Shown here: one piece after another, positions 636-20,719 of the stretch
How the letters are laid out: the number at the start of each line of letters is the position of its first letter
Position numbering within the stretch: the stretch's first letter is position 1
Origin: a bacterium
Lineage (GTDB): Bacteria; CLD3; SB21
DNA length: 62,016 nucleotides
Direction: 5' to 3'
NCBI GenBank assembly: GCA_013360215.1
Contig: JABWCP010000018.1
Span: 1-62,016, forward strand
Translations under genes and position numbers: made by a program
Notes under the pieces: generated by a model
Told to the model about the DNA's origin: nothing
Databases searched by the model: none
What the model saw: the letters and a program-made list of their open reading frames with translations, nothing else

Positions 636-1958
636 ATGAAAATGTTCAGCCTGTTACTAACATTGGTTTTTTTACTATTGAATTGTAAAGTTATAGCACA
701 AAGTCAAACTATAGAACAAGGCGCCATGGTAGACCTGATAAATCCTAGATCATTGGATCATCCTATTTATTTATCGTTCAAAGATGGAGACTATCTTACA
801 TCAATTATTGAATGTGATAAATGGGATTCTGTTTATAGAGGCACAAATTCAGAAGATGCCTTTATGGAACAAGAAGCTTACTACAATTCTTTTGTAGGTA
901 ATTACAAAAAAGCACTTAACAATTTCGACAAAATTAATGCCAAATGGATTAAGCAGCTCGATACCACTAACTTTCTTGACAGATCTTTTTTGTCAGCAAA
1001 AAAGCTGGATGCTGTAAATGAGATTATAAGAGAAGCGCAAAACCGCCAAATTACGATTGTTAATGAAGCACATCATGTACCGCAGCATCGTGCCTTCATA
1101 TCTTCACTACTTAAGCCTTTATATGAATCCGGCTATCGTTACTTTGCAACAGAAATGCTAACAGATAATATTGATACGGTAAAGAAGAACGGTTACGTCA
1201 GCTTTCAACAGAACGGATTTTATCCGAATGAACCCGTATATGCTAATTTAATTCGAAAGGCAATTGAAATTGGATATACTTTAGTCGGTTACGAAGATAC
1301 TGTGAACTGTGATTTTGACCCAGTAAATCCATTTCGCTGTTTAAATCAGCGAGAACAAAACCAAGCTAAAAACATAGCCAATCTAATCTTAAAGAATAAT
1401 TCAAATGCAAAAATCCTTATACATTGTGGATACCAACATGCAGATGAAGTTGAACATCAATCACCTAAGGTCAAAACAATGGCAGCGCATTTAAAAGAGT
1501 TAAGCAATACCGATCCCTTGACCATTGATCAAACGGTTATGAGTGAACACAGCTTAGTTAATTTTGAAAACTCATATTACAGATATGTTCAAGATAGTTT
1601 AAAAATAAATTCACCAGCAATATTTAAAACGATTAATGGTTATTGGGTTGATGACACTAAACGCGGGTTTGTCGACATGCAAGTTTTTCATCCAAGGACA
1701 AACTATATAAACGGTAGACCAAACTGGCTCATTAAAGAAAATTACATCCTCACTTTACCGGATTTTGATATTTCCTCTTTTCCTTTTTTGGTACAAGCAT
1801 TTAAAAAGTCTGATAAAACTAATGCAATTCCAATGGATCAGTTTTTAGTTGATTCAAGGAAAGAAAAAATTGCCGTAGCAGTACCCAAAGGGTATTATCG
1901 AATACGCATGATTAACAGCAAAGGCACTATTCATGAATTCGAAGTGAAAAATCCTTAG
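636..1958 (+). CDS. Secreted protein, putative EreA/ChaN/TIKI-superfamily hydrolase (paralog 1)
   Basis: AAGGAAGGGG SD; hydrophobic signal peptide; motifs IVNEAHH, YFATE, NQREQNQAKNI, ILIHCGYQH. The ORF is secure; the family call is tentative. Confidence 0.6.
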   Translation: MKMFSLLLTLVFLLLNCKVIAQSQTIEQGAMVDLINPRSLDHPIYLSFKDGDYLTSIIECDKWDSVYRGTNSEDAFMEQEAYYNSFVGNYKKALNNFDKINAKWIKQLDTTNFLDRSFLSAKKLDAVNEIIREAQNRQITIVNEAHHVPQHRAFISSLLKPLYESGYRYFATEMLTDNIDTVKKNGYVSFQQNGFYPNEPVYANLIRKAIEIGYTLVGYEDTVNCDFDPVNPFRCLNQREQNQAKNIANLILKNNSNAKILIHCGYQHADEVEHQSPKVKTMAAHLKELSNTDPLTIDQTVMSEHSLVNFENSYYRYVQDSLKINSPAIFKTINGYWVDDTKRGFVDMQVFHPRTNYINGRPNWLIKENYILTLPDFDISSFPFLVQAFKKSDKTNAIPMDQFLVDSRKEKIAVAVPKGYYRIRMINSKGTIHEFEVKNP

Positions 1959-1962
1959 ATAT

Positions 1963-2192
1963 TATCGCTTATTCTAAGTCTTCACAATTAAAACGGAGAC
2001 AAACATGAAAAACGAAAAAAAAGAACAGAAATTAGAACAATTCGAAGACTATAAACTCCAAAAGGCAAACTCAATTTCTGGCGGAAAAGCAAACACACTC
2101 TTGACAACACACGTGTGCCAAGGCGGTTGGGATGATATTACCGACTAATTAACTTAATCATGTAAAACCAAACTCTCTTAGAATAAGCGATA
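1963..2192. repeat. Perfect 16-bp inverted repeat flanking the precursor gene (arms 1963-1978 and 2177-2192)
   Basis: TATCGCTTATTCTAAG and CTTAGAATAAGCGATA are exact reverse complements. Confidence 0.92.
2005..2148 (+). CDS. RiPP precursor peptide, 47 aa: MKNEKKEQKLEQFEDYKLQKANSISGG-KANTLLTTHVCQGGWDDITD
   Basis: Translated by hand; not in the ORF track. GGAG SD 5' of the ATG; double-glycine leader; Thr/Lys...Asp core; directly upstream of the ATP-grasp gene, in a cluster with a C39 exporter. Confidence 0.9.
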   Translation: MKNEKKEQKLEQFEDYKLQKANSISGGKANTLLTTHVCQGGWDDITD

Positions 2193-2198
2193 TTTTTT

Positions 2199-3215
2199 AT
2201 GATTCTTATTTTCAGCATAGACGGAGGTGATGGGTCTACATCCCCAGTAATGGATTGGATAACTTATCTTGGCGCTGATAGAATTAGAGTGAACGTTGGA
2301 AATCTTAATAAAGATGTAAAATTTTCAATACATTTAGAACCAAACGGTATTACTACTGAATATCGAAATATGGATATAAATTTTTCATCCAAAGAAGTTA
2401 GTGCCGTATGGTTTAGACGAGAAGAGCGAATGTTCAGCGGGCTTGATACATCGTCAATATCCAACATTCGAATCAAAGAATCAGTTGATAGATTTTTGCA
2501 ACGAGAAGTAGAGGTCATTAAACAAGCTCTCTACTTACAATTTGACGATAAAGTATGGCTGTGTGATCCATCGTCGGGCAACCTTAACAAGATTAATGCT
2601 CTACAAAAAGCATGTGACGCAGGCATACGAATCCCAACCACTTTAATTACCAATAAGAGAACTGAATTGGAACGTTTTAAAAATAAACATAGAAAAATTA
2701 TATGCAAATGCTTTAGACAAGGAGGTGTTATTCAGTTAGACGGCTCAACATATGGAATGCATACTGAAATACTGTCTGATGATATTATCTCTAGTACCGA
2801 TGATGTTTTGTTTCCTGCTTTTGTACAAGAATACATTCCTAAAAAATACGAATTGAGGATTTTTTTTATTGAAAGTAACTTTTTTCCCATGGCAATTTTT
2901 TCACAAAACGACCCTCAAACATCAGTTGATTTTAGAAAATATAATTATTTAAAACCCAATCGAAATACTCCTTACATCTTACCTCACGAGATCCAAGAAA
3001 AATTAAAAACTCTTATGTTAAGCCTGAAACTCAATACGGGTTCAATTGATATGATCAGGGCAACCGACGGAAGTTACGTGTTTCTAGAGGTCAATCCTGG
3101 TGGGCAGTTTGGGATGGTCTCTGAACCGTGTAACTATTATTTAGAGAAACGAGTCGCTGAATATTTAATAAATCAATCAAAAAAATATTATGAGTCAAAA
3201 GTTTTTAGAAATTGA
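2199..3215 (+). CDS. gwsG: Grasp-with-SPASM system ATP-grasp peptide maturase (graspetide synthetase)
   Basis: NKINAL..A...GIRIPTTLIT, QEYIPKKYELR, DFR, GSIDMI and FLEVNPGGQF motifs of RimK/MvdD-like ligases; SPASM gene downstream. Confidence 0.9.
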   Translation: MILIFSIDGGDGSTSPVMDWITYLGADRIRVNVGNLNKDVKFSIHLEPNGITTEYRNMDINFSSKEVSAVWFRREERMFSGLDTSSISNIRIKESVDRFLQREVEVIKQALYLQFDDKVWLCDPSSGNLNKINALQKACDAGIRIPTTLITNKRTELERFKNKHRKIICKCFRQGGVIQLDGSTYGMHTEILSDDIISSTDDVLFPAFVQEYIPKKYELRIFFIESNFFPMAIFSQNDPQTSVDFRKYNYLKPNRNTPYILPHEIQEKLKTLMLSLKLNTGSIDMIRATDGSYVFLEVNPGGQFGMVSEPCNYYLEKRVAEYLINQSKKYYESKVFRN

Positions 3216-3399
3216 TAAATTCATCAATGAGCCAACACTCATTTCAAAACTTCCAATAACATTTAAGCTACTTGAACAATCTACTTATGATCAATTAAGT
3301 ACTATCTCTCCGGTACGAAGTGATTTTCATCAAGAAAATAATTATGGAATAAAATTTTTTTATAAAACAATTTCAAAGCCATTTAACAATCCTTTTTAA
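3190..3399 (+). CDS. Small hypothetical protein (69 aa) between the ATP-grasp and SPASM genes
   Basis: Fills the gap exactly: overlaps the gwsG 3' end and stops 10 bp before gwsS. An open frame this long is unlikely by chance in such AT-rich DNA. Confidence 0.6.
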   Translation: MSQKFLEIDKFINEPTLISKLPITFKLLEQSTYDQLSTISPVRSDFHQENNYGIKFFYKTISKPFNNPF

Positions 3400-3409
3400 T
3401 TTTAAACTA

Positions 3410-4423
3410 ATGAGCGTTTTTTTTAAAATGCATGGCAACTGTATTCCGGTCAAAGGGGCAGTTAAAAGCGTAATATGCGATCTACAGCGTCATGAGCTAA
3501 AACAAATTTCAAATGACGTTTTCGAATTATTGGAGTTACTAAAGAATCACCCTGTAGAATATCTAAAGAATATTTACACTACTGAATTTATAGATGAATC
3601 GTTAGAGTTTTGTGTTACAAACGAATTCGGCTTCTACACTGAAGAGCCTTGGCTATTTCCAGAAATAGATTTGTCGTGGGATTCACCGTATCAAATATCA
3701 AATGCAATTATTGATTCAAGCAAACAATCAAAACACAACTATAAAAAAATAATTGACGAGTTAGATGAACTTGGATGTGAAACAATACAGTTTAGATTTT
3801 ACTTTTGCCCTCAATTATCTTTTCTAAACCACATACTTCTTCTTACGCAGGTAAGCAGGCTAAAGTCCATTCAACTTATATTAAAAGATGAAAATTTAAT
3901 AACTCAAAAAGAACTCGAAGAAGTATGCAGAGCTAACCCAAGAATTGAAAGCATTTTCTTACATTCATCACATCTTTTTAGGATCATTGATAAAATTGAA
4001 GGAAGTCACGCCAACATAATCTATTTTACTGATAGAATTGAATCGCATGATTCATGCGGAAATATTAATAAAATGTATTTTTGTATTAATATCCCAATGT
4101 TTACTGAAGCTCACAAACTGAATACATGTCTGAATCGCAAAATATCAATTGACGTTAATGGCGACATAAAGAATTGTCCTTCTATGACGCGTCACTTTGG
4201 AAACATACACAACACTTCATTACATAGTGCAATTATTCAAAAAGAATTTAAAGATTTATGGCTTATAAATAAGGATCAAATTGAAGTTTGTAAGATTTGT
4301 GAATTTAGATATGTTTGCACCGATTGCCGTGCTTTCATTACAGAACCAAGCAACATTTATTCAAAACCTTCAAAATGCACTTACGACCCTACTATTGGAA
4401 AGTGGTTAGATGAGACCCAATAA
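3410..4423 (+). CDS. gwsS: Grasp-with-SPASM system SPASM-domain peptide maturase
   Basis: C-terminal SPASM: CLNRKISIDVNGDIKNCP...FGNI...CKICEFRYVCTDC (Cx2Cx5Cx2C)...KC; no CxxxCxxC motif. Confidence 0.88.
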   Translation: MSVFFKMHGNCIPVKGAVKSVICDLQRHELKQISNDVFELLELLKNHPVEYLKNIYTTEFIDESLEFCVTNEFGFYTEEPWLFPEIDLSWDSPYQISNAIIDSSKQSKHNYKKIIDELDELGCETIQFRFYFCPQLSFLNHILLLTQVSRLKSIQLILKDENLITQKELEEVCRANPRIESIFLHSSHLFRIIDKIEGSHANIIYFTDRIESHDSCGNINKMYFCINIPMFTEAHKLNTCLNRKISIDVNGDIKNCPSMTRHFGNIHNTSLHSAIIQKEFKDLWLINKDQIEVCKICEFRYVCTDCRAFITEPSNIYSKPSKCTYDPTIGKWLDETQ

Positions 4424-4452: not shown

Positions 4453-5754
4453 ATGAAATCGTTTGTATTACTTGTCTTGCTTTCATTAAACCAAATATAT
4501 GCGCAGTATTATCTCCCACCGGCAATTATGGATTCGATTCGGGATATTGATAGGTCACTATCTTCTGATCGTAACTATATAGCCGCTTTGAATCGGTTAA
4601 ACCGAATTCATGCAATGCCACAATATGCCGGGCAGCCTATATTGTTTAATCATTGGGGCTTGTATAATTCTTTAGTGTCCGATTATTCGACGGCAATTGC
4701 TTTTTTTGACTCCATTGAGCTTCTTCGTCAGAGTCAACGCCGTACCACATCATTGCCGCCAACCGGTTTAACCTTTGATACAAGCCAAATACGCCCTTAT
4801 CCCGCGATGGAAACCATACTTCGCCTTGCAAAGAATAATTCCGTCGTAATGATCAATGAGCGTCATCACATGCCTATGCATCGGGCTTTTATTTTGGAAC
4901 TTCTGATTCGCCTCAAAGCGCTCGGATATACCCACTATGCTGCCGAAGGATTGCAAAATCACGATACAATCACAAGCCCTACAACATACCCTGCGATAGG
5001 AAAGACAGGATATTATGTAAATGAGCCTGTTTTTGCTGAATTGATACGAACTGCCATTCTGTTGGGTTATAAGATAGTCGCCTATGAAACAACAAGCTCG
5101 GCATCTCCCGAATCCGATCCTATCAAAAACCAAAATAAAAGGGAAAAAGAACAGGCTGAAAATTTGTACAATAAAACTTTGCTCCAAGACCCTCATTGTA
5201 AAGTTTTAGTCCATGTCGGTTATGGTCACAACGATAAAATGGGAGTTGGCGGCTGGATACCTATGGCATCCTACTTCAAAACTATAAGCGGCGTCGAGCC
5301 TTTGTCCATTGATCAAATTGAAATGTTTGAACACCGTGTTTCGGATTTTGAAAACCCCTATTACCGGTTTATTTCCGGCATGATTTCGCAGCCTACAGTT
5401 TTTATTGAAAAATCTTCGAGCACATCTTGGGCGCACCTGCAACCCGGCAACTTCGATTTGGGAATATGCCACCCCAAAGAAACTTATGTTCATGGACGCC
5501 CGACATGGAGAAACATAGCTAACCGCTATCGGATGTATGATCTACCCAACGAAAAAAGAACAATTACAAAAGGTTTACTCCAGGCGTTTTATCATGATGA
5601 GCCTACGGATGCTGTTCCAGCAGATCAGATCGTTTTTAATACCGGCACTTGGCAGACGATCCCGTGTTTATTATTAAGACCGGGGAAATATCGCTTCCGA
5701 TTAATAAGCGGGGAAAGCGATGCATCATCGGAATGGGTGGATACGGTCAAATAA
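4453..5754 (+). CDS. Secreted protein, putative EreA/ChaN/TIKI-superfamily hydrolase (paralog 2)
   Basis: Signal peptide; MINERHH, HYAAE, NKREKEQAENL, VLVHVGYGH; co-linear similarity to 636-1958 (NEPV(F/Y)AxLIR, PL(S/T)IDQ, FENxYYR, GRPxW). Confidence 0.6.
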   Translation: MKSFVLLVLLSLNQIYAQYYLPPAIMDSIRDIDRSLSSDRNYIAALNRLNRIHAMPQYAGQPILFNHWGLYNSLVSDYSTAIAFFDSIELLRQSQRRTTSLPPTGLTFDTSQIRPYPAMETILRLAKNNSVVMINERHHMPMHRAFILELLIRLKALGYTHYAAEGLQNHDTITSPTTYPAIGKTGYYVNEPVFAELIRTAILLGYKIVAYETTSSASPESDPIKNQNKREKEQAENLYNKTLLQDPHCKVLVHVGYGHNDKMGVGGWIPMASYFKTISGVEPLSIDQIEMFEHRVSDFENPYYRFISGMISQPTVFIEKSSSTSWAHLQPGNFDLGICHPKETYVHGRPTWRNIANRYRMYDLPNEKRTITKGLLQAFYHDEPTDAVPADQIVFNTGTWQTIPCLLLRPGKYRFRLISGESDASSEWVDTVK

Positions 5755-5756
5755 TC

Positions 5757-7958
5757 ATGAGCCGCTTTCCGATATATCTTCAGCATGACAAAATGGACTG
5801 CGGCCCGGCTTGTATCCGTATGATAACAAGATTTTTTGGACGTACAGTCAGCCCGGAAAAATTACGCTGCATCACCTATGCCTCCAAGGGAGGCACCTCT
5901 CTTTTGAATTTGTCGGAGGCCGCAGAATCTTTGGGTTTTAGAACATTAGCGGTCAAGGTATCTCTTCAAAAGCTTCAGAAAGCGCCTCTGCCTTGTATTG
6001 TGTTTTGGCAGCAGCGTCACTTTATCGTAGTCTATAAGATCGGTCGAAGATATATCCATGTTGCCGATCCGGCGCACGGGATTCTAAAATACCGTCACGC
6101 AGACTTCGTATCCGGATGGTATAGTGACCGATCAAATGAAGGCGAGGGTCAGGGCATCGCCCTGCTCTTCGAACCAACGCCGGCATTTTACGAATCGGAG
6201 GATGATTTTGAAAAATCGTCGAATCCCAATAAAAAGGGCTTTGGCCTTTTATGGCCGTATTTGCGATCGCATCACAAGCTGATATTTCAGCTCGGTTTAG
6301 GTTTTTTATTGGGAAGCATATTACAGCTCATATTTCCGTTCCTCGCCCAATCTATGGTAGATATGGGTATTCACAATCAGAATATCGGCTTTGTATATAC
6401 CATACTGTTAGCGCAACTGATGCTTTTTCTCAGCCGAATAACAGTCGAAAGTATCCGGCGCTGGATACTCCTACATATCAGCACACGACTACAGGTTTCC
6501 CTCATATCCGATTTTCTGAGGAAGCTGATGCGTCTGCCTGTGGCTTTTTTTGATGCCAAACAAACCGGCGACCTGATGCAGCGCATAAATGACAGCCATC
6601 GGATAGAAAACTTTCTCACGGTGACTTCGCTCAGTTTCGTTTTTTCTATATTCAATCTTTTTATCTTCGGTGCCATTATACTTTTATACAGCCCTTTCAT
6701 ATTTCTGATTTTTACAACTTTCAGCGCCGTTTCGATAACATGGATCATGTTTTTTATGAAAAAAAGGCGTGATCTGGACTACAAACGGTTTGACCGTATG
6801 TCCGAAAACCAGCAGGGCATACTTCAGATCATCATGGGTATGCAGGAAATCAAACTCAGCGGATCGGAAAAGCAGAAACGATGGAAATGGGAATCGCTAC
6901 AGGCAAAACTTTTTACCATTAGCCGTAAAGCACTGGGTTTGGGGCAGGTGCAGGAGACCGGCACGCTTTTTATCAATGAATTTAAAAACATTATGATCAC
7001 ATTCATCGCGGCCAAAGAAACGATAGACGGACATATCACGCTCGGTGCGATGATGGCGATACAATATATGATCGGTCAACTGAATGCACCTATTGATCAG
7101 ATGATCGTTTTTTTGCAACACGCCCAAGATGCCAAACTGAGTTTAGAACGGTTATCAGAAATACATACCCACGACGATGAAGATCATGAAAGTGATAACA
7201 GCGCTCAACTTCCTCAGGAAAGATCCATAATGCTGGATCAGGTTTCATTTCAGTATGAGGGCCCTCACTCGCCCTACGCGCTCAAAGATGTCCACCTCCC
7301 GATACACGAAGGAAAAATAACGGCTATTGTCGGTGAAAGCGGTAGCGGCAAAACAACTTTACTTAAACTTTTGCTCAAGTTTTATATCCCGACAGAGGGA
7401 AAAATAAGCGTCGGATCGGACGCACTATCGCAGATCAGCGCTTCTTTTTGGCGTCAGCAGTGCGGCGTCGTCATGCAAGACGGGTATATTTTTTCGGATA
7501 CGATCGCTCACAATATCGCTCCTGCGGATGAAACCGTAGATCACCGAAGGTTGATACAAGCCGTCGAGGTTGCTAATATTCGGACATTCATTGAATCTTT
7601 ACCTCTGCGATACAATACTAAAATCGGAAATGACGGACTCGGACTCAGTCAGGGTCAAAAGCAACGCATTCTCATCGCCCGCGCAGTTTATAAAAATCCG
7701 CAATATTTGTTTTTTGATGAAGCTACCAGTGCGCTGGACGCTACTAACGAACGGATCATTATGTACAATCTTCAGCGTGTCTTCCAAAACAAAACCGTCG
7801 TCATCATCGCGCACCGACTCAGTACCGTGCGTAACGCCGATCAGATCATCGTACTGGAAAAAGGGAGTGTGGTGGAATCCGGCTCACATATTGAACTGAC
7901 CCAACAACGAGGCGTTTACTTCGAACTGGTACGCAACCAATTAGAACTCGGGAATTAG
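5757..7958 (+). CDS. Peptidase C39 domain-containing ABC transporter (PCAT)
   Basis: QHDKMDCGPAC catalytic Cys, HFIVV, DPAHG; transmembrane domain; GESGSGKTT, LSQGQKQR, DEATSALD. Start moved to ATG 5757, just after the previous stop. Confidence 0.95.
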   Translation: MSRFPIYLQHDKMDCGPACIRMITRFFGRTVSPEKLRCITYASKGGTSLLNLSEAAESLGFRTLAVKVSLQKLQKAPLPCIVFWQQRHFIVVYKIGRRYIHVADPAHGILKYRHADFVSGWYSDRSNEGEGQGIALLFEPTPAFYESEDDFEKSSNPNKKGFGLLWPYLRSHHKLIFQLGLGFLLGSILQLIFPFLAQSMVDMGIHNQNIGFVYTILLAQLMLFLSRITVESIRRWILLHISTRLQVSLISDFLRKLMRLPVAFFDAKQTGDLMQRINDSHRIENFLTVTSLSFVFSIFNLFIFGAIILLYSPFIFLIFTTFSAVSITWIMFFMKKRRDLDYKRFDRMSENQQGILQIIMGMQEIKLSGSEKQKRWKWESLQAKLFTISRKALGLGQVQETGTLFINEFKNIMITFIAAKETIDGHITLGAMMAIQYMIGQLNAPIDQMIVFLQHAQDAKLSLERLSEIHTHDDEDHESDNSAQLPQERSIMLDQVSFQYEGPHSPYALKDVHLPIHEGKITAIVGESGSGKTTLLKLLLKFYIPTEGKISVGSDALSQISASFWRQQCGVVMQDGYIFSDTIAHNIAPADETVDHRRLIQAVEVANIRTFIESLPLRYNTKIGNDGLGLSQGQKQRILIARAVYKNPQYLFFDEATSALDATNERIIMYNLQRVFQNKTVVIIAHRLSTVRNADQIIVLEKGSVVESGSHIELTQQRGVYFELVRNQLELGN

Positions 7959-7961
7959 AAG

Positions 7962-9242
7962 ATGCCCAACGATATTGAACCCCTTGAACGTATCCACAGC
8001 GACAGTTATGACGACGTGATGAATTACGAGCCCCATTGGTTGATACGGAGGGGTTCGTTCATATTGCTATTGGTCATTATTTTTTTGATTACCGTCAGCG
8101 GATATATACAATATCCGGATATATTACGCGGACAAATCACGCTGATCAGCGATCAGCCCACATTGGAGGTTGTCGCGCAATCCACAGGCCGCGTGAAATT
8201 GTTTGTCAAAGATCGCGACTCAGTCAAGGCCGGGCAACCTCTGGCTATGATCGAAAACCCTGCCGACTTTGCTTCCATTCAGAAATTGCGCTTATTTTTA
8301 GATTCTGCATCTTCTCAAAGCGATAGTTACGTAATGATAGATACAGCGTTACAACTCGGAGAACTGCAGACTTTTTATTCGGAAGTCATGCAGAATTATA
8401 AAGAATTAGCATCGTTTAAAGAGATCAATTATGAAGTAAAAAAAATCAACTCCATTCGGCAACAGATCAGCGCCTATTATAATTTGGGCGACCGACTGGA
8501 TGATCAGATCAAACTTCTGAAATTAGATGTGATGAAAGCCGAAAAAGATTTTGAAGTTAATAAATCTTTACATGAACGCGGACTACTTTCGGATGTCGAG
8601 CTCTCCGGTTATCAGTTCCAGTTAAACCAGAAGAAACTTGCGATGGAAGAAGCGCAGAAAGAAACTATCCGTAATTCGATCGTAGTTTCTGAAAATCTCA
8701 AAAACATATTAGACATGGAATTTCAAAATCAGGACAAAACGGCCCGGTACCTGATTCGCATACAGGAGTCACTGAGCAAACTCAAGAGCGAATTTTCAGC
8801 ATGGGAAAAAAAATACTGGATAACCAGTCCCATTAGCGGTGAAGCCATCTACAATGATGTATGGACAGACGACCGATTTGTAAAACTGGGCCAGGAGATC
8901 ATGACGATCAATCCGAAAACAAATCGTATTCGCGGACGCATAAAATATGAAGGCCCCGGACTCGGAAAAGTTGTTCCCGGACAGGAAGTTAAAATCAAAT
9001 TAGAAAATTATCCTTTTCAGGAATTCGGTATCGTATCGGGCGTCGTGGAAAATATTTCAGCCGTATCCAAAGATAAATCTGTAGTCATACAAATCACACT
9101 CCCTCAACAATTAAAAACATCTTTGGGTGCCTTATTGGAATACAAACAAGAAATGCAAGGAACATCCGAAATAATAACCGAAAACAGCACGTTGCTCGAA
9201 AGAGTTTTTCAACAACTGCGCCAAATCACCCAATATCAGTAA
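7962..9242 (+). CDS. HlyD-family periplasmic adaptor (type I secretion)
   Basis: N-terminal TM helix, VKAGQPLAMI, long coiled coil, SPISG, YPFQEFG..G.V..IS. Confidence 0.92.
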   Translation: MPNDIEPLERIHSDSYDDVMNYEPHWLIRRGSFILLLVIIFLITVSGYIQYPDILRGQITLISDQPTLEVVAQSTGRVKLFVKDRDSVKAGQPLAMIENPADFASIQKLRLFLDSASSQSDSYVMIDTALQLGELQTFYSEVMQNYKELASFKEINYEVKKINSIRQQISAYYNLGDRLDDQIKLLKLDVMKAEKDFEVNKSLHERGLLSDVELSGYQFQLNQKKLAMEEAQKETIRNSIVVSENLKNILDMEFQNQDKTARYLIRIQESLSKLKSEFSAWEKKYWITSPISGEAIYNDVWTDDRFVKLGQEIMTINPKTNRIRGRIKYEGPGLGKVVPGQEVKIKLENYPFQEFGIVSGVVENISAVSKDKSVVIQITLPQQLKTSLGALLEYKQEMQGTSEIITENSTLLERVFQQLRQITQYQ

Positions 9243-16243: not shown

Positions 16244-16287
16244 GTTTTTCAAAGTACTTACTTAATGGATTGAAGCGGAATTATACC

Positions 16288-17271
16288 ATGATCGAAGCGA
16301 AATTTTACCGTAAAGAAGCCGATCATATCGTCTGTGAACTATGCCCTCGTATGTGTAAAATACAGGAGGGTGCGGAGGGCGACTGCTGGGGATATAAGAA
16401 TATTGACGGTAAATTGTACTCTTTTAATTACGGTAAAATTGTTACAGCCGTTTACGATCCGATGGAGAAAAAACCATTTTTCCATTATTACCCCAATTCC
16501 ACCATTTTATCGCTGGCACCTAACGGTTGCAACATGCGTTGCAAATTCTGCCAAAACCACGATGTGGCATTGAACAAAAAAGAAACAAAAGATATATCTC
16601 TGCAAACGATCTTGGATTATTCCGGAAAGAGTCATTCTATCGGCGTGGCTTATACGTTTACGGAACCTTTGATATGGTATGAATTTCTGATTGACTCCAT
16701 GCGTAAGCTGAAAGGTATCGGACAGAAAAATATCTTGATTACCAACGGATATTTGAATCAAAAACCTATCGAAGACATTATTCCGTACATTGACGCGATG
16801 AACATCAGCGTCAAATCTATGAACCCGGAAACGCATGAACGATTAACGGAAAGTAAACTAGAAATTGTACTCAATTCCATCAAATCCGCATTCGGGAAAA
16901 CGCATTTGGAATTGACGTACTTGTTGATCCCCGGTGAATCCGACAGCACGGAAGATGTCGGCAACTTTGTTGATTTCGTTGCGGGAATCAACAAAGACAT
17001 ACCTGTACATTTTAAACGTTTTTTTCCACACCACAAAATGACCTCACAACCCATGACGCCCAATGAAACGATGGTGCGAACATACAAACTGGCTACACAA
17101 AAGCTGAGTTACGTATATTTGACGGATACGGACATTGACGGTGTCTCGGATACATTCTGCCCCAACTGTAAACGTTTGATCATCAAGCGGCGCGATTACC
17201 AATCCAATCTCGGCGGTATGCGCGGTTCCAATTGTAAATTCTGCGGCCACCGCATTTTCATTAAATTTTAA
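16288..17271 (+). CDS. amrS: AmmeMemoRadiSam-type radical SAM enzyme
   Basis: CELCPRMC...GDC, DPMEKKPFFHYYP, CNMRCKFCQN (CxxxCxxC), AYTFTEP, C-terminal CPNC/CKFC. Confidence 0.82.
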   Translation: MIEAKFYRKEADHIVCELCPRMCKIQEGAEGDCWGYKNIDGKLYSFNYGKIVTAVYDPMEKKPFFHYYPNSTILSLAPNGCNMRCKFCQNHDVALNKKETKDISLQTILDYSGKSHSIGVAYTFTEPLIWYEFLIDSMRKLKGIGQKNILITNGYLNQKPIEDIIPYIDAMNISVKSMNPETHERLTESKLEIVLNSIKSAFGKTHLELTYLLIPGESDSTEDVGNFVDFVAGINKDIPVHFKRFFPHHKMTSQPMTPNETMVRTYKLATQKLSYVYLTDTDIDGVSDTFCPNCKRLIIKRRDYQSNLGGMRGSNCKFCGHRIFIKF

Positions 17272-17291
17272 AGTACGGGAGAAATTTCATT

Positions 17292-18650
17292 TTGCGCAGT
17301 TTCTTTATCGCTTCGTATTCAAAAAACATCTTTCATGGCTTCATAATTTTTCTTGTTTCACTTACATCATGCGATGACCATCTAAAAGATGTCGGCATGG
17401 AAGTTATTGACCGCGGTACCTCGACCGGTACTTTCAAAACGGATACATTATACGCCGATGACATAGAGCGAATCACTTCATTTGTTGATTCAATTCCCGT
17501 ATCAGAAACCAATCGCCTATATCTTGGAACATACGGCTCATACGATTTTCGTATGCTAATGTATTTCGCTATGCCGTCCGAAGAAATTACTGATGAAAAC
17601 GGCAATGTCATTCCGGTTGACAGCATGAATATTACCGAAAATTCACAGATCAGGCTTGTAGGTTCAAAATACTATGGATCTGCTGGAGCCATTACAGCAC
17701 AACTCCATACTATTCAAAAAAACTGGTCATCCAGTGACTTGTATTGGAGTCGTTTTGAGAAAGGTACAGATTACAACACTACACCAGCTTCCACTCAAAC
17801 ATTCAGCGCTCTTAACGAATTTGACACCGTAAGAATTTCCGTACCCAAAGACACAGTTATTCAATGGCTTAAAACACGAAATGATACAAGTACTACCGTT
17901 CCTAAACGCAATCGTGGTGTTATCATTGATTTTGACGCCGCATCTAATTTTATTCAGCAATTTTACAGTGCACGCGTAACAACCGTTTCCGGAGGAATCG
18001 CAACTCTTGACTTCGAAAAAGCACCGAGATTGGAAATAAAATATTCATGGGCGATTGATCGAAATAAAAACGGAGTTTACGACGGCGACAACGAGTTCGG
18101 TTCTAGTGTTTTTTATGTTGCACCGGTTTTCATTAGCGGCGTATATAGTGGCGGTTATCATGGATTTGTATATAGAGATAGAAATCCTCAACCAGTTAAC
18201 ACAATTACCGTTGGCGGGGGGCTTCCTTATCACTCGGTTTTGAAGTTTAAGACGGATAGACTCCCTAAAAACTTAACCATAAATTCAGCTTTTCTTATTA
18301 TGCACACCGATCCTGTTGGAAACTTATATCGTACTACAGGCGACTCGATTGTTATACGGAGTTATTTTTCGCTATCGGATACCAGTGATTGGAAAGCCGG
18401 TGAAATGAATGTTGATGAAGCTATATCTTCCAGCGATAATACCCGTGATGACACTTTACGGCTAAATATTTCTGATATGCTACAATCATGGGCGACTAAC
18501 CCAAAAAGTAATTTGGGGCTTATGCTTACAAATCAATTCTCGTTGAACGGTAACTTTAATCCGTTATATCGCGTCCGTTTTTATAATAATCCGTCCGATC
18601 GCGATAATTCTCCAAAAATAATCATTTACTATACTCAGTCACCGCAATAA
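17292..18650 (+). CDS. Putative lipoprotein (DUF4270-like)
   Basis: Lipobox LTSC, beta-rich, YLG and INSAFL motifs, C-terminal PKIIIYY. Confidence 0.6.
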   Translation: MRSFFIASYSKNIFHGFIIFLVSLTSCDDHLKDVGMEVIDRGTSTGTFKTDTLYADDIERITSFVDSIPVSETNRLYLGTYGSYDFRMLMYFAMPSEEITDENGNVIPVDSMNITENSQIRLVGSKYYGSAGAITAQLHTIQKNWSSSDLYWSRFEKGTDYNTTPASTQTFSALNEFDTVRISVPKDTVIQWLKTRNDTSTTVPKRNRGVIIDFDAASNFIQQFYSARVTTVSGGIATLDFEKAPRLEIKYSWAIDRNKNGVYDGDNEFGSSVFYVAPVFISGVYSGGYHGFVYRDRNPQPVNTITVGGGLPYHSVLKFKTDRLPKNLTINSAFLIMHTDPVGNLYRTTGDSIVIRSYFSLSDTSDWKAGEMNVDEAISSSDNTRDDTLRLNISDMLQSWATNPKSNLGLMLTNQFSLNGNFNPLYRVRFYNNPSDRDNSPKIIIYYTQSPQ

Positions 18651-18662
18651 AAGAAATCCCTT

Positions 18663-19880
18663 ATGCGATATACCGCTATTCTAGCATTAATGATTCTTGT
18701 AAATTTGGCGCCTCCGGCTGCTTATCCAGGTGGTTCTTCATATTCTGCGACCACTTATGGGCTTTACGAATACAAACCAAACCCCAGATCGCTCGGTATG
18801 GGCGGAGCGGGTTTAGCCATTCCAAGCTACTATACGCTTAATATGCAAAACCCGGCCACATTACTCGGGATTCCGATGACACGTTTTGAGCTAAACATGT
18901 TTGCCGAATGGAATCAAGCCAGTAACGGCGCTGCCAAAAATTTTTCCAATCGCGCTACCATCAACCATGTAGCATTTGCGTTTCCCTTTGGGAAAACTTT
19001 AGTCGCAGCGATTAATCTCTCGCGTGTAACAAATGTCAATTACGAATTTTCCACACCGAATTTGATCTTTGAAGGTGAAAAATATACCGAAACTTTAATC
19101 GGAACAGGTGGGCTTCAACAACTTGCCTTTACCGGAGCAGGCAAAATAAATCCCAAGTGGACCATTGGCGCATCGTTGCAGTATCTCTTCGGCACCATAA
19201 AAAGAGAATGGGGCATTAACTATAACTCGGATGAATTAGTTGATACGCGCGACGTAAGACATCAAAACATGAGCGGCGGTCGTTTGGTCATCGGAGGCCT
19301 TTATCAACATAATGAGCAATGGAATTTTGGCGGATTCCTGTCAATGGCCGGAAAAATATCCAGCGATGTACGTGTGGTCGGTACTTACCGCGATACGACT
19401 GTATCCTATGAACAAAGCTTGAATTACCCTACAGAAATCGGATTTGGCGCGTCTTATCGGTGGACGAAGCGCTATTTATTGGCGACTGATATTGTTTACG
19501 GAACATGGGGATCGGTTAAAGAATTTAGTCCCACGCAAAAAAACAGAAACACCGTTCGTTGGTCCGGCGGCGTCGAAAGACAACCATCGAATGCTTTTTC
19601 AGCTCCATGGTGGGATAAGAATTATTACCGCTTCGGCCTTATGATCAACAATTTGTATGCAACCAATACAACAGGAAACCACGCCAGCGAAATAATGTTT
19701 ACTTTGGGTATTGGAATGCCGTTTAACCGCGAACGCAGCAGTTTTGATTTGAGTTTAGAAGCGGGACAGCGCGGACAAATCGCGGATAATAAAGTCCGTG
19801 ACCGCGTTTATCGCCTGACATTATCTTTTACCGGTGGTGAGCGTTGGTTTTTGAATCGCCAAAAACGAAAACGTGATTAA
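18663..19880 (+). CDS. Outer-membrane beta-barrel protein (FadL/OmpP1-like)
   Basis: Signal peptide, RSLGMGGAGLA, NPA, amphipathic strands, ERWF terminus. Confidence 0.75.
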   Translation: MRYTAILALMILVNLAPPAAYPGGSSYSATTYGLYEYKPNPRSLGMGGAGLAIPSYYTLNMQNPATLLGIPMTRFELNMFAEWNQASNGAAKNFSNRATINHVAFAFPFGKTLVAAINLSRVTNVNYEFSTPNLIFEGEKYTETLIGTGGLQQLAFTGAGKINPKWTIGASLQYLFGTIKREWGINYNSDELVDTRDVRHQNMSGGRLVIGGLYQHNEQWNFGGFLSMAGKISSDVRVVGTYRDTTVSYEQSLNYPTEIGFGASYRWTKRYLLATDIVYGTWGSVKEFSPTQKNRNTVRWSGGVERQPSNAFSAPWWDKNYYRFGLMINNLYATNTTGNHASEIMFTLGIGMPFNRERSSFDLSLEAGQRGQIADNKVRDRVYRLTLSFTGGERWFLNRQKRKRD

Positions 19881-19948
19881 AACTTTTTTGTACATTTACG
19901 TATAAACATTTGCACGAATGTACACAAAACAGAAACGGAGGAACTCAC

Positions 19949-20719
19949 TTGAAAAAAATTATTTTGATCTTCATATGTGCTGCATCCGCTGCTTTTGCTC
20001 AAGAATCAAGCCCGGCTACGCCTTATCAGCATCGTCAGCTTGTTAACGTACCGACCGCAGGCATGCTCAACAAAGGTAATTACGAAATCGGAATGCGCCT
20101 TTTCGCTAATGGCGGCGTGCTTTCTAATATTGGTGTCGGTATAACGGATCGTTTTATGATCGGTATTTCGTATGGCGGAGAAAAAATTATCGGCTCCGGC
20201 AAAGTTAATTTTAACCCACTCCCGGGTGTCGATGTACGCTACCGTGCCGTTGACGAATCAACAGCCGGCCCCGCGGTAACACTTGGCTTTAACAACCAAG
20301 GTTTCGGTCCGTATTACAAATCGGTAGATACGGTCAAAGTAAACCGTTACACGCAAAAATCACGTGGTCTTTTTATCACGGCCAGTAAAAATTATGCCTT
20401 TGCCGGAAACTTAGGAATTCACGGAGGCATTTCGTGGTCGGTCACTGAAAAGAAAGATAAAGACAATCAACCGGCTTTTTTTGTCGGTGTTGATAAAAGT
20501 ATCAATGACGAATTAACAGCCGTTTGGGAATACGACCTCGCGCTCAATGACAATAAAGACATCATAGGGCACGGACGCGGTTATATGAATGTTGGTGCAA
20601 AACTCAATTTTGGTCAAAAAGTAATGGTCGAATTTATAATGACCGACATTCTCAACAACAGTAAAGATATCGGTAAGTTCTCCCGTGAGTTACGATTATC
20701 GCTCATTCACGCATTCTAA
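19949..20719 (+). CDS. Outer-membrane/exported protein (YjbH-like)
   Basis: GGAGG then TTG start; signal peptide; LVNVPTAGML; C-terminal Phe. Confidence 0.6.
   Translation: MKKIILIFICAASAAFAQESSPATPYQHRQLVNVPTAGMLNKGNYEIGMRLFANGGVLSNIGVGITDRFMIGISYGGEKIIGSGKVNFNPLPGVDVRYRAVDESTAGPAVTLGFNNQGFGPYYKSVDTVKVNRYTQKSRGLFITASKNYAFAGNLGIHGGISWSVTEKKDKDNQPAFFVGVDKSINDELTAVWEYDLALNDNKDIIGHGRGYMNVGAKLNFGQKVMVEFIMTDILNNSKDIGKFSRELRLSLIHAF

Follow-up and report, generated by a model that had tools for sequence, protein, structure and literature searches.

A likely grasp-with-SPASM graspetide precursor gene, bracketed by an inverted repeat, in a bacterium outside Bacteroidota

The window analyzed here, a 62,016-nucleotide stretch of contig JABWCP010000018.1 (assembly GCA_013360215.1; GTDB lineage Bacteria; CLD3; SB21), carries near its left end a grasp-with-SPASM operon holding GwsG, an LPL-type protein, GwsS, two secreted paralogs, a C39-ABC exporter, and an HlyD protein. 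The neighbor genes of this operon all lie on the + strand, and a very small gene is placed directly before gwsG. The features of the locus are as follows.

636..1958, + strand: protein of 440 aa, signal-peptide-like at its N-terminus and paralogous to the product of 4453-5754
1956..1978: left arm of an inverted repeat, with a perfect 16-nt core at 1963-1978, beginning at the TAG stop of the 440-aa gene
1995-1999, + strand: Shine-Dalgarno-like GGAGA, six bases 5' of the ATG, read directly from the sequence
2005..2148, + strand: probable precursor peptide gene, 47 codons plus TAA, encoding MKNEKKEQKLEQFEDYKLQKANSISGGKANTLLTTHVCQGGWDDITD
2005-2085, + strand: leader, 27 aa, ending SISGG
2086-2145, + strand: core, 20 residues, KANTLLTTHVCQGGWDDITD
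2177..2199: right arm of the inverted repeat, with its perfect core at 2177-2192, its last base coinciding with the A of the gwsG ATG
2199..3215, + strand: gwsG, ATP-grasp peptide maturase (graspetide synthetase), 338 aa, scoring 284.9 bits by TIGR04192 (cut-off 230)
3190..3399, + strand: LPL-type small protein, 69 aa, motifs KLPITF and FFYKTIS, overlapping the end of gwsG by 26 nt
3410..4423, + strand: gwsS, protein with a SPASM domain and an RRE-like N-terminus, scoring 310.9 bits by TIGR04193 (cut-off 175)
4453..5754, + strand: 433-aa paralog, sharing an NE(A/R)HHxPxHRAF stretch
5757..7958, + strand: Peptidase-C39/ABC exporter (PCAT), Peptidase_C39 E = 1e-33, with ABC_membrane and ABC_tran
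7962..9242, + strand: HlyD-family membrane-fusion protein, HlyD_3, TIGR01843 at 82.2 bits, below its cut-off

The 47-codon ORF occupies most of a 240-nt spacer of 34% G+C between the 440-aa gene, which ends at 1958, and gwsG, which starts at 2199 on the same strand after a gap of 51 nt. It is present exactly as the initial annotation had described it, with a Shine-Dalgarno sequence, an ATG, and a leader ending in ...LQKANSISGG, and there is no earlier in-frame start codon 5' of the ATG at 2005. The length of the ORF is by itself weak evidence and mildly unusual, because + strand ATG ORFs of at least 47 codons appear in 191 of 5,000 dinucleotide shuffles of the spacer. This count and the base composition of the spacer are what would speak for a chance, unexpressed ORF in A+T-rich sequence, a reading that we regard as highly improbable: it has to contend with the Shine-Dalgarno-like site, with the first place that the ORF takes against an independent leader profile (below), with the conservation of the peptide in public assemblies, where the single variant is conservative, and with an RNA-library contig that lies on the ORF. 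With all its features taken together, the ORF is far beyond chance.

The identical peptide sequence is found in NCBI nr and on 9 contigs of the Logan assemblies, and the only natural variant in public data, Thr8 to Ser, keeps the hydroxyl. A 1.2-kb stretch of the locus occurs nearly whole in sludge metagenomes from at least 6 studies, possible source samples not counted. The RNA-library contig (run X20) spans 1987-2141 with 0 differences, and others cover gwsG (X18) and the upstream gene (X19); these contigs record presence in an RNA library, which is not proof of transcription, of transcript ends, or of levels, and the three runs cover little of the 3.5-kb stretch, so that uncovered parts are uninformative on expression. 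Promoter-like sites number 8 against 13.6 expected in a promoter scan, a terminator scan returned none on the + strand, and no Rfam family was matched (best E = 0.39, below gathering).

The exporter of this operon carries a C39 peptidase domain, and the leader of the peptide is of the corresponding type. We took 17 peptides encoded beside other GwsG genes, leaving out the window's own, built a 20-column profile from the 20 residues at the end of their leaders, and searched it against the 17,338 ATG ORFs of 30 to 100 codons in the window's genome. The precursor ORF ranks first of the 17,338 (12.2 bits, E = 0.22 over that set), where the profile is to be read as a GG-leader profile because the comparison peptides were picked by eye for a GG leader. 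It aligns to residues 9-27 and ends at the first Gly-Gly (Gly27). Hydrophobic residues at leader positions such as -4, -7, -12, and -15 form the classical double-glycine pattern, and the residues that precede the first GG are Ile at -4, Ala at -7, Tyr at -12, and Phe at -15. The profile and the Peptidase_C39 domain of the exporter thus bear out the proposal of a double-glycine leader ending at Gly27. The second GG, which lies in the core, ends at Gly41, and had been put forward as an alternative cleavage point, is disfavored, because it scores -3.0 bits by the same profile against 12.2 for the first and because the residues before it (Cys at -4, Thr at -7, Asn at -12) are not hydrophobic.

The described precursor models TIGR04194 (grasp_w_spasm_A), TIGR04139, TIGR04149, and PF14406 do not match the peptide at E <= 10; the same four models, run against 18 comparison peptides from other GwsG loci, find a match above a cut-off in 4 of them and at least a weak match in 11. 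The one named-family profile that the peptide does match is ComC, a double-glycine leader family, faintly (Pfam E = 0.14). This match, the failure of every described precursor model, and the presence of an exporter and HlyD protein that alone would suffice for secretion are consistent with an unmodified double-glycine-leader peptide, either a class II bacteriocin or a signal peptide, that shares the exporter and is not a substrate of GwsG. We consider this improbable. The ORF shares the strand of gwsG and precedes it by 51 nt, a position taken by precursors at other loci, and RODEO scores it as a graspetide precursor. Its core, short and acidic, has its donors and acceptors at opposite ends, a composition that sets it apart from the usual cationic bacteriocin.

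That position was examined in 15 GwsG-type loci besides the window, which were oriented and whose small ORFs were read by eye. In 13 of the 15, GwsG is preceded on the same strand by a small ORF with a GG leader, at distances from 51 to about 1,400 nt. Of the remaining two, one (L019) has a similar upstream ORF that has no GG, and the other (L022) has no upstream precursor ORF and sits directly behind another cluster. The latter belongs to a genome (G061; loci L001, L022, and L029) with two complete GwsG-LPL-GwsS sets in tandem, for which a single GG-leader precursor was found, upstream of the first set; one GwsG in this genome has an in-frame TGA.

A small ORF abuts GwsG in 14/14 loci with a full-length GwsG, the window included, and in most of these ORFs LP(L/I)xF occurs close to the start and FYKPIS close to the end. 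The window's 69-aa protein aligns with its counterparts at the 13 other loci and was assigned to the LPL family by the description in PMC8939145, there being no curated model. Modeled alone it is predicted to fold poorly (pLDDT 61.4, pTM 0.22), as might a protein that needs a partner, and a PqqD-like identity for it has been suggested in the literature. Because no other small ORF is so constant across these loci, and since some group 14 rows in the available part of the RODEO table list LPL-like ...FYKPIS... sequences as "precursors," this protein could itself be taken for the true GwsG substrate, with the 47-aa ORF left to some other role. This reading is very unlikely: the LPL protein has no GG motif despite the C39 domain of the exporter, donors and acceptors are not abundant in its conserved parts, and PMC8939145 judges the family auxiliary for the first of these reasons. 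A complex prediction of GwsG, the LPL protein, and the peptide scored 0.01 against a mark of 0.32 and counts neither way.

GwsG is the sole TIGR04192 protein of the window's genome. By sequence it is related to the solved graspetide ligases AMdnB, CdnC, and MdnC/MdnB (E = 7e-26 to 5e-22), among them the enzymes of the microviridin system (MdnA with MdnB/MdnC; 5ig8, 5ig9) and of chryseoviridin (CdnC; 7mgv). Against the microviridin ligase models MvdC/MvdD it stays far below cut-off (TIGR04185, 160.5 versus 425; TIGR04184, 128.8 versus 475), in keeping with the initial annotation, which had found neither the microviridin nor the plesiocin motif in the core, as inspection of the core confirms. 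The chemistry expected by analogy with microviridin is the ATP-dependent formation of side-chain esters and amides. The locus differs from the microviridin system in that its core has no TxKxPSD, its leader has no enzyme-binding motif, and SPASM and LPL partners are present in addition.

The two secreted proteins that flank the maturation genes share 33.9% identity over 357 aa (E = 9e-63). Neither has a match in Pfam or NCBIfam, and a sequence search with the 433-aa paralog reached no protein of solved structure (best E = 0.45). Both probably belong to the "cluster 23" family of PMC8939145, whose description agrees with the signal-peptide-like start of each and with their conserved His/Arg stretch. 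The exporter likely starts at the ATG at 5757, just after the previous stop, rather than at the TTG at 5649 given in the ORF list.

Position beside gwsG, the leader profile, and the C39-peptidase exporter all support the proposal of a precursor peptide for GwsG. We therefore conclude that the ORF is very probably the precursor gene of a grasp-with-SPASM graspetide, corresponding to RODEO group 14 and to Branch 5 of Makarova et al. The peptide is not new. The initial annotation had called it hidden, a description that does not survive the presence of the identical 47-aa sequence in NCBI nr and, as row 16131 assigned to group 14, in the RODEO table published by Carter et al. 2026 (PMC13097080, supplementary file 2). 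It is thus an already catalogued, ordinary member of a known and chemically uncharacterized kind. Makarova et al. 2022 (PMC8939145), in the text available, describe the architecture as ATP-grasp "Branch 5," with 190 loci nearly restricted to Bacteroidetes. The window has the same gene set and order as group 14, equivalent to Branch 5 and to the NCBIfam grasp-with-spasm system (TIGR04192/TIGR04193): a GG-leader precursor, an ATP-grasp enzyme, an LPL protein, a SPASM protein, cluster-23-like proteins, a C39-ABC exporter, and HlyD, with the small LPL protein directly before the SPASM gene in both. The cores of group 14/Branch 5 are hypervariable, and no relative of the window's core was found. 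A further likeness is to the gwsG/gwsS operons of Porphyromonas gingivalis as given in the available text of a preprint (bioRxiv 10.64898/2026.08.04.741601), where the precursor also lies immediately upstream of gwsG and is often left uncalled by the gene caller, and where a type-I-like secretion set follows, as in the window. The P. gingivalis propeptide gene described there is 222 bp long, against 144 bp in the window, and its operon sits on a conjugative/mobile element; no mobile-element genes were seen beside the window's precursor operon.

Because the type of gene cluster was described between 2009 and 2022 and has been named by NCBIfam, its identification here adds little by itself. The host is not a member of Bacteroidota, the phylum to which the system had been considered nearly confined. 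Row 16131 gives the organism as "bacterium" and the phylum as "Undefined," and the other 59 of the 60 surrounding rows, among those listed in the available part of the table, are from Bacteroidota. One group 14 row from a Bacteroidia bacterium in the same part of the table has a leader identical by eye at 15 of 27 residues and an unrelated core.

The window's phylum is represented by only 20 genomes in the genome collection, and among the genomes of 61 relatives GwsG scores above cut-off only in the window's own. A genome of the same order (G016) holds a 214-bit GwsG copy interrupted by a contig end (L009), and one of the same family (G005) holds, at 1480-3104 of locus L010, the last ~75 residues of GwsG, with a homolog of the 440-aa protein after them. 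This remnant, the closest relative found, is 58% identical to the window's GwsG, and the locus has the appearance of a cluster that has degraded in a sister genus. Among 401 sampled Bacteroidota genomes, 11 have GwsG at E <= 1e-40, 10 of them above cut-off, at 15 places in all. Further GwsG relatives were found at 7 loci in genome contigs (best 33% identity) and 3 in metagenome contigs (best 38%). In a neighbor-joining tree of 21 sequences, the window's GwsG forms a deep, unresolved branch that is not sister to the copy from the same order. A search of 5.8 billion proteins for relatives of the core returned only the peptide's own cluster, and tblastn found no paralog of the peptide in its own genome (best other E = 0.38). 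Conserved-core evidence was not obtained, because these searches found neither close GwsG loci nor relatives of the core.

The 20-residue core has candidate donors at Lys1, Thr4, Thr7, Thr8, and Thr19 and candidate acceptors at Asp16, Asp17, and Asp20. These positions, and the HVCQGGW loop at residues 9-15, agree with the initial annotation, which had omitted Thr19 as a possible donor. A graspetide synthetase works by phosphorylating the side chain of an Asp or Glu and linking it to a Ser, Thr, or Lys. A hairpin with up to three Thr/Lys-to-Asp links is a plausible product. Graspetides characterized so far inhibit proteases, according to PMC13097080 and the P. gingivalis preprint. Microviridin cores also have Trp beside two acidic acceptors. 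The pattern TxxxTx(6-10)Dx(1-4)D, which PMC8939145 gives for the cores of Branch 1, another branch, also describes the window's core. A Trp followed by Asp, considered as a core motif shared by group 14, was rejected, since it occurs by eye in 4 of the 18 comparison peptides, which is too few.

A resemblance is found to the C-terminus of group 28 cores (Branch 3, clusters 270/5178, in the available text of PMC8939145), where ...CNGGWDDCDD and ...SDGGWDDSDCF may be set against CQGGWDDITD of the window's peptide. The conserved group 28 core, ...(T/S)ISG(S/C)xxGWDD(C/S)D, and the window's core have GGWDD in common, as well as Ser/Thr donors placed a few residues before the acceptor patch. Among the first 30 of at least 50 "GWDD" rows of the RODEO table, whose counts are all lower bounds, 27 are from group 28, and the window's peptide is the sole row from group 14. 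Group 28 leaders, however, are long and have no GG site, the acceptor spacing is WDD-x-D rather than the WDD-xx-D of the window, the synthetases belong to another group than the assigned group 14, and the hosts are Actinomycetota, Pseudomonadota, and Cyanobacteriota. Because leader, enzyme group, and spacing all differ, we read the likeness as possible convergence on an acceptor patch rather than as kinship, and no homology is claimed. The literature searched held no description of this likeness.

The SPASM domain of GwsS is recognized by TIGR04085 (30.2 bits versus 27), and its predicted structure (pLDDT 88.4) consists of four short strands and three helices, followed by an alpha/beta region and then the SPASM part. 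The modeled fold matches SuiB, CteB, TigE, and PqqE (E down to 1.4e-6, TM 0.38-0.47), and GwsS is like these RiPP radical-SAM/SPASM maturases in overall fold, in the RRE-like N-terminal domain, and in the seven-Cys SPASM motif. Unlike them, it has neither a CxxxCxxC motif nor a match to the Radical_SAM Pfam (PF04055); the motif is absent from 11/11 aligned GwsS sequences, in which only the SPASM cysteines are kept. SAM-radical initiation by GwsS is unlikely for these two reasons, and leader docking or electron transfer is a more likely role than radical chemistry. The single Cys of the core, with His and Trp, had been suggested as a site of further chemistry. The idea is weakened, and for Cys it loses its main support, since GwsS is devoid of CxxxCxxC and Cys is missing from 6 of the 18 comparison cores.

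These elements can be arranged into a maturation pathway. The 27-residue leader would dock on the maturation proteins, most likely on the RRE-like N-terminal domain of GwsS and/or the LPL protein, because group 14 leaders have no motif that binds ATP-grasp enzymes directly. GwsG with ATP would then activate the side chains of Asp16, Asp17, and Asp20, and the activated residues would be joined to Thr4, Thr7, Thr8, and possibly Lys1, to give esters or an amide. Our best guess for the outcome would be nested, hairpin-like rings around HVCQGGW, of which Thr8-Asp16, Thr7-Asp17, and Thr4-Asp20 is the pairing we would draw, one that is unlikely to be correct in every bond. GwsS, which would keep two auxiliary Fe-S sites and no SAM cluster, may act only as a scaffold or may add a second change. 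Cleavage after Gly27 would fall to the C39 domain of the exporter, which with HlyD would secrete the 20-residue product. The two secreted paralogs may have an extracytoplasmic part in trimming or self-protection. How the rings form and connect, what GwsS does, and in which sequence the steps run are all inferred, because no characterized group 14 product was found in the freely accessible literature searched. With 20 residues, one Cys, and cleanly separated donors and acceptors, the core is one of the smallest and simplest of the kind, and it is for this reason a convenient test case for the rings that GwsG makes, for the role of a SPASM protein that has no radical-SAM site, and for the LPL protein as a needed partner; partner proteins have recently been shown to be needed for two other graspetide groups.

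The inverted repeat sets the locus apart from other group 14 loci. Its arms are 23 nt long, 87% complementary, and 198 nt apart, and they exactly bracket the spacer with the peptide gene; no inverted repeat longer than 12 nt was found at any of 22 other GwsG loci. In the 3.72-Mb genome there are 4 perfect 16-nt inverted pairs with arms 100-400 nt apart, the window's pair included. The arm sequence itself occurs in the genome at the two arms only, with two other matches that carry 2 mismatches each, and for this reason a repeated mobile element (MITE) was considered and rejected. When the RNA is folded, the stem formed by the arms is part of the minimum-energy structure as well as of the centroid (z = -4.05, with 0/200 shuffles folding as well), and the predicted stem contains the gwsG ATG.

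We favor a role at the RNA level, which may be in processing, in stability, or in gating the translation of gwsG; a DNA switch and paired operator sites are in our view less likely. In one specific form of the RNA reading, which we put forward tentatively and regard as somewhat doubtful, the repeat would act as an rRNA-type processing stalk that loops out the ORF, buries the gwsG start, and offers a duplex to a double-strand RNase. A stem-capped precursor message would then be released, and the ratio of precursor to enzyme would be set in this way. In a less likely variant, the arms would delimit a DNA segment whose inversion switches the precursor off. The window's one recombinase, XerC, lies 37 kb away, and no strand-changing joint indicative of the inverted form was seen in 4 runs, all of them contigs, which drop rare forms. 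Neither a stalk nor an invertible switch was found described for an operon of a peptide natural product in the literature searched. The repeat around the gene may point to an unrecognized regulation of precursor supply.

Elsewhere in the window, positions 16270-20716 hold an AmmeMemoRadiSam-type radical-SAM gene followed by genes for a DNRLRE-domain protein and a BamG-family protein and by an unnamed ORF, all of which appear unrelated to the peptide cluster. The radical-SAM gene (16270-17268) was considered as a missing partner of GwsS and rejected, since it belongs to the unrelated AmmeMemoRadiSam system. At the very start of the contig, positions 1-110 consist of about three tandem copies of a ~39-nt unit, one frame of which reads MFSSNVLVECSRR, and just after these repeats lies an ORF with an AraC-type HTH (118-447) that may be cut short.
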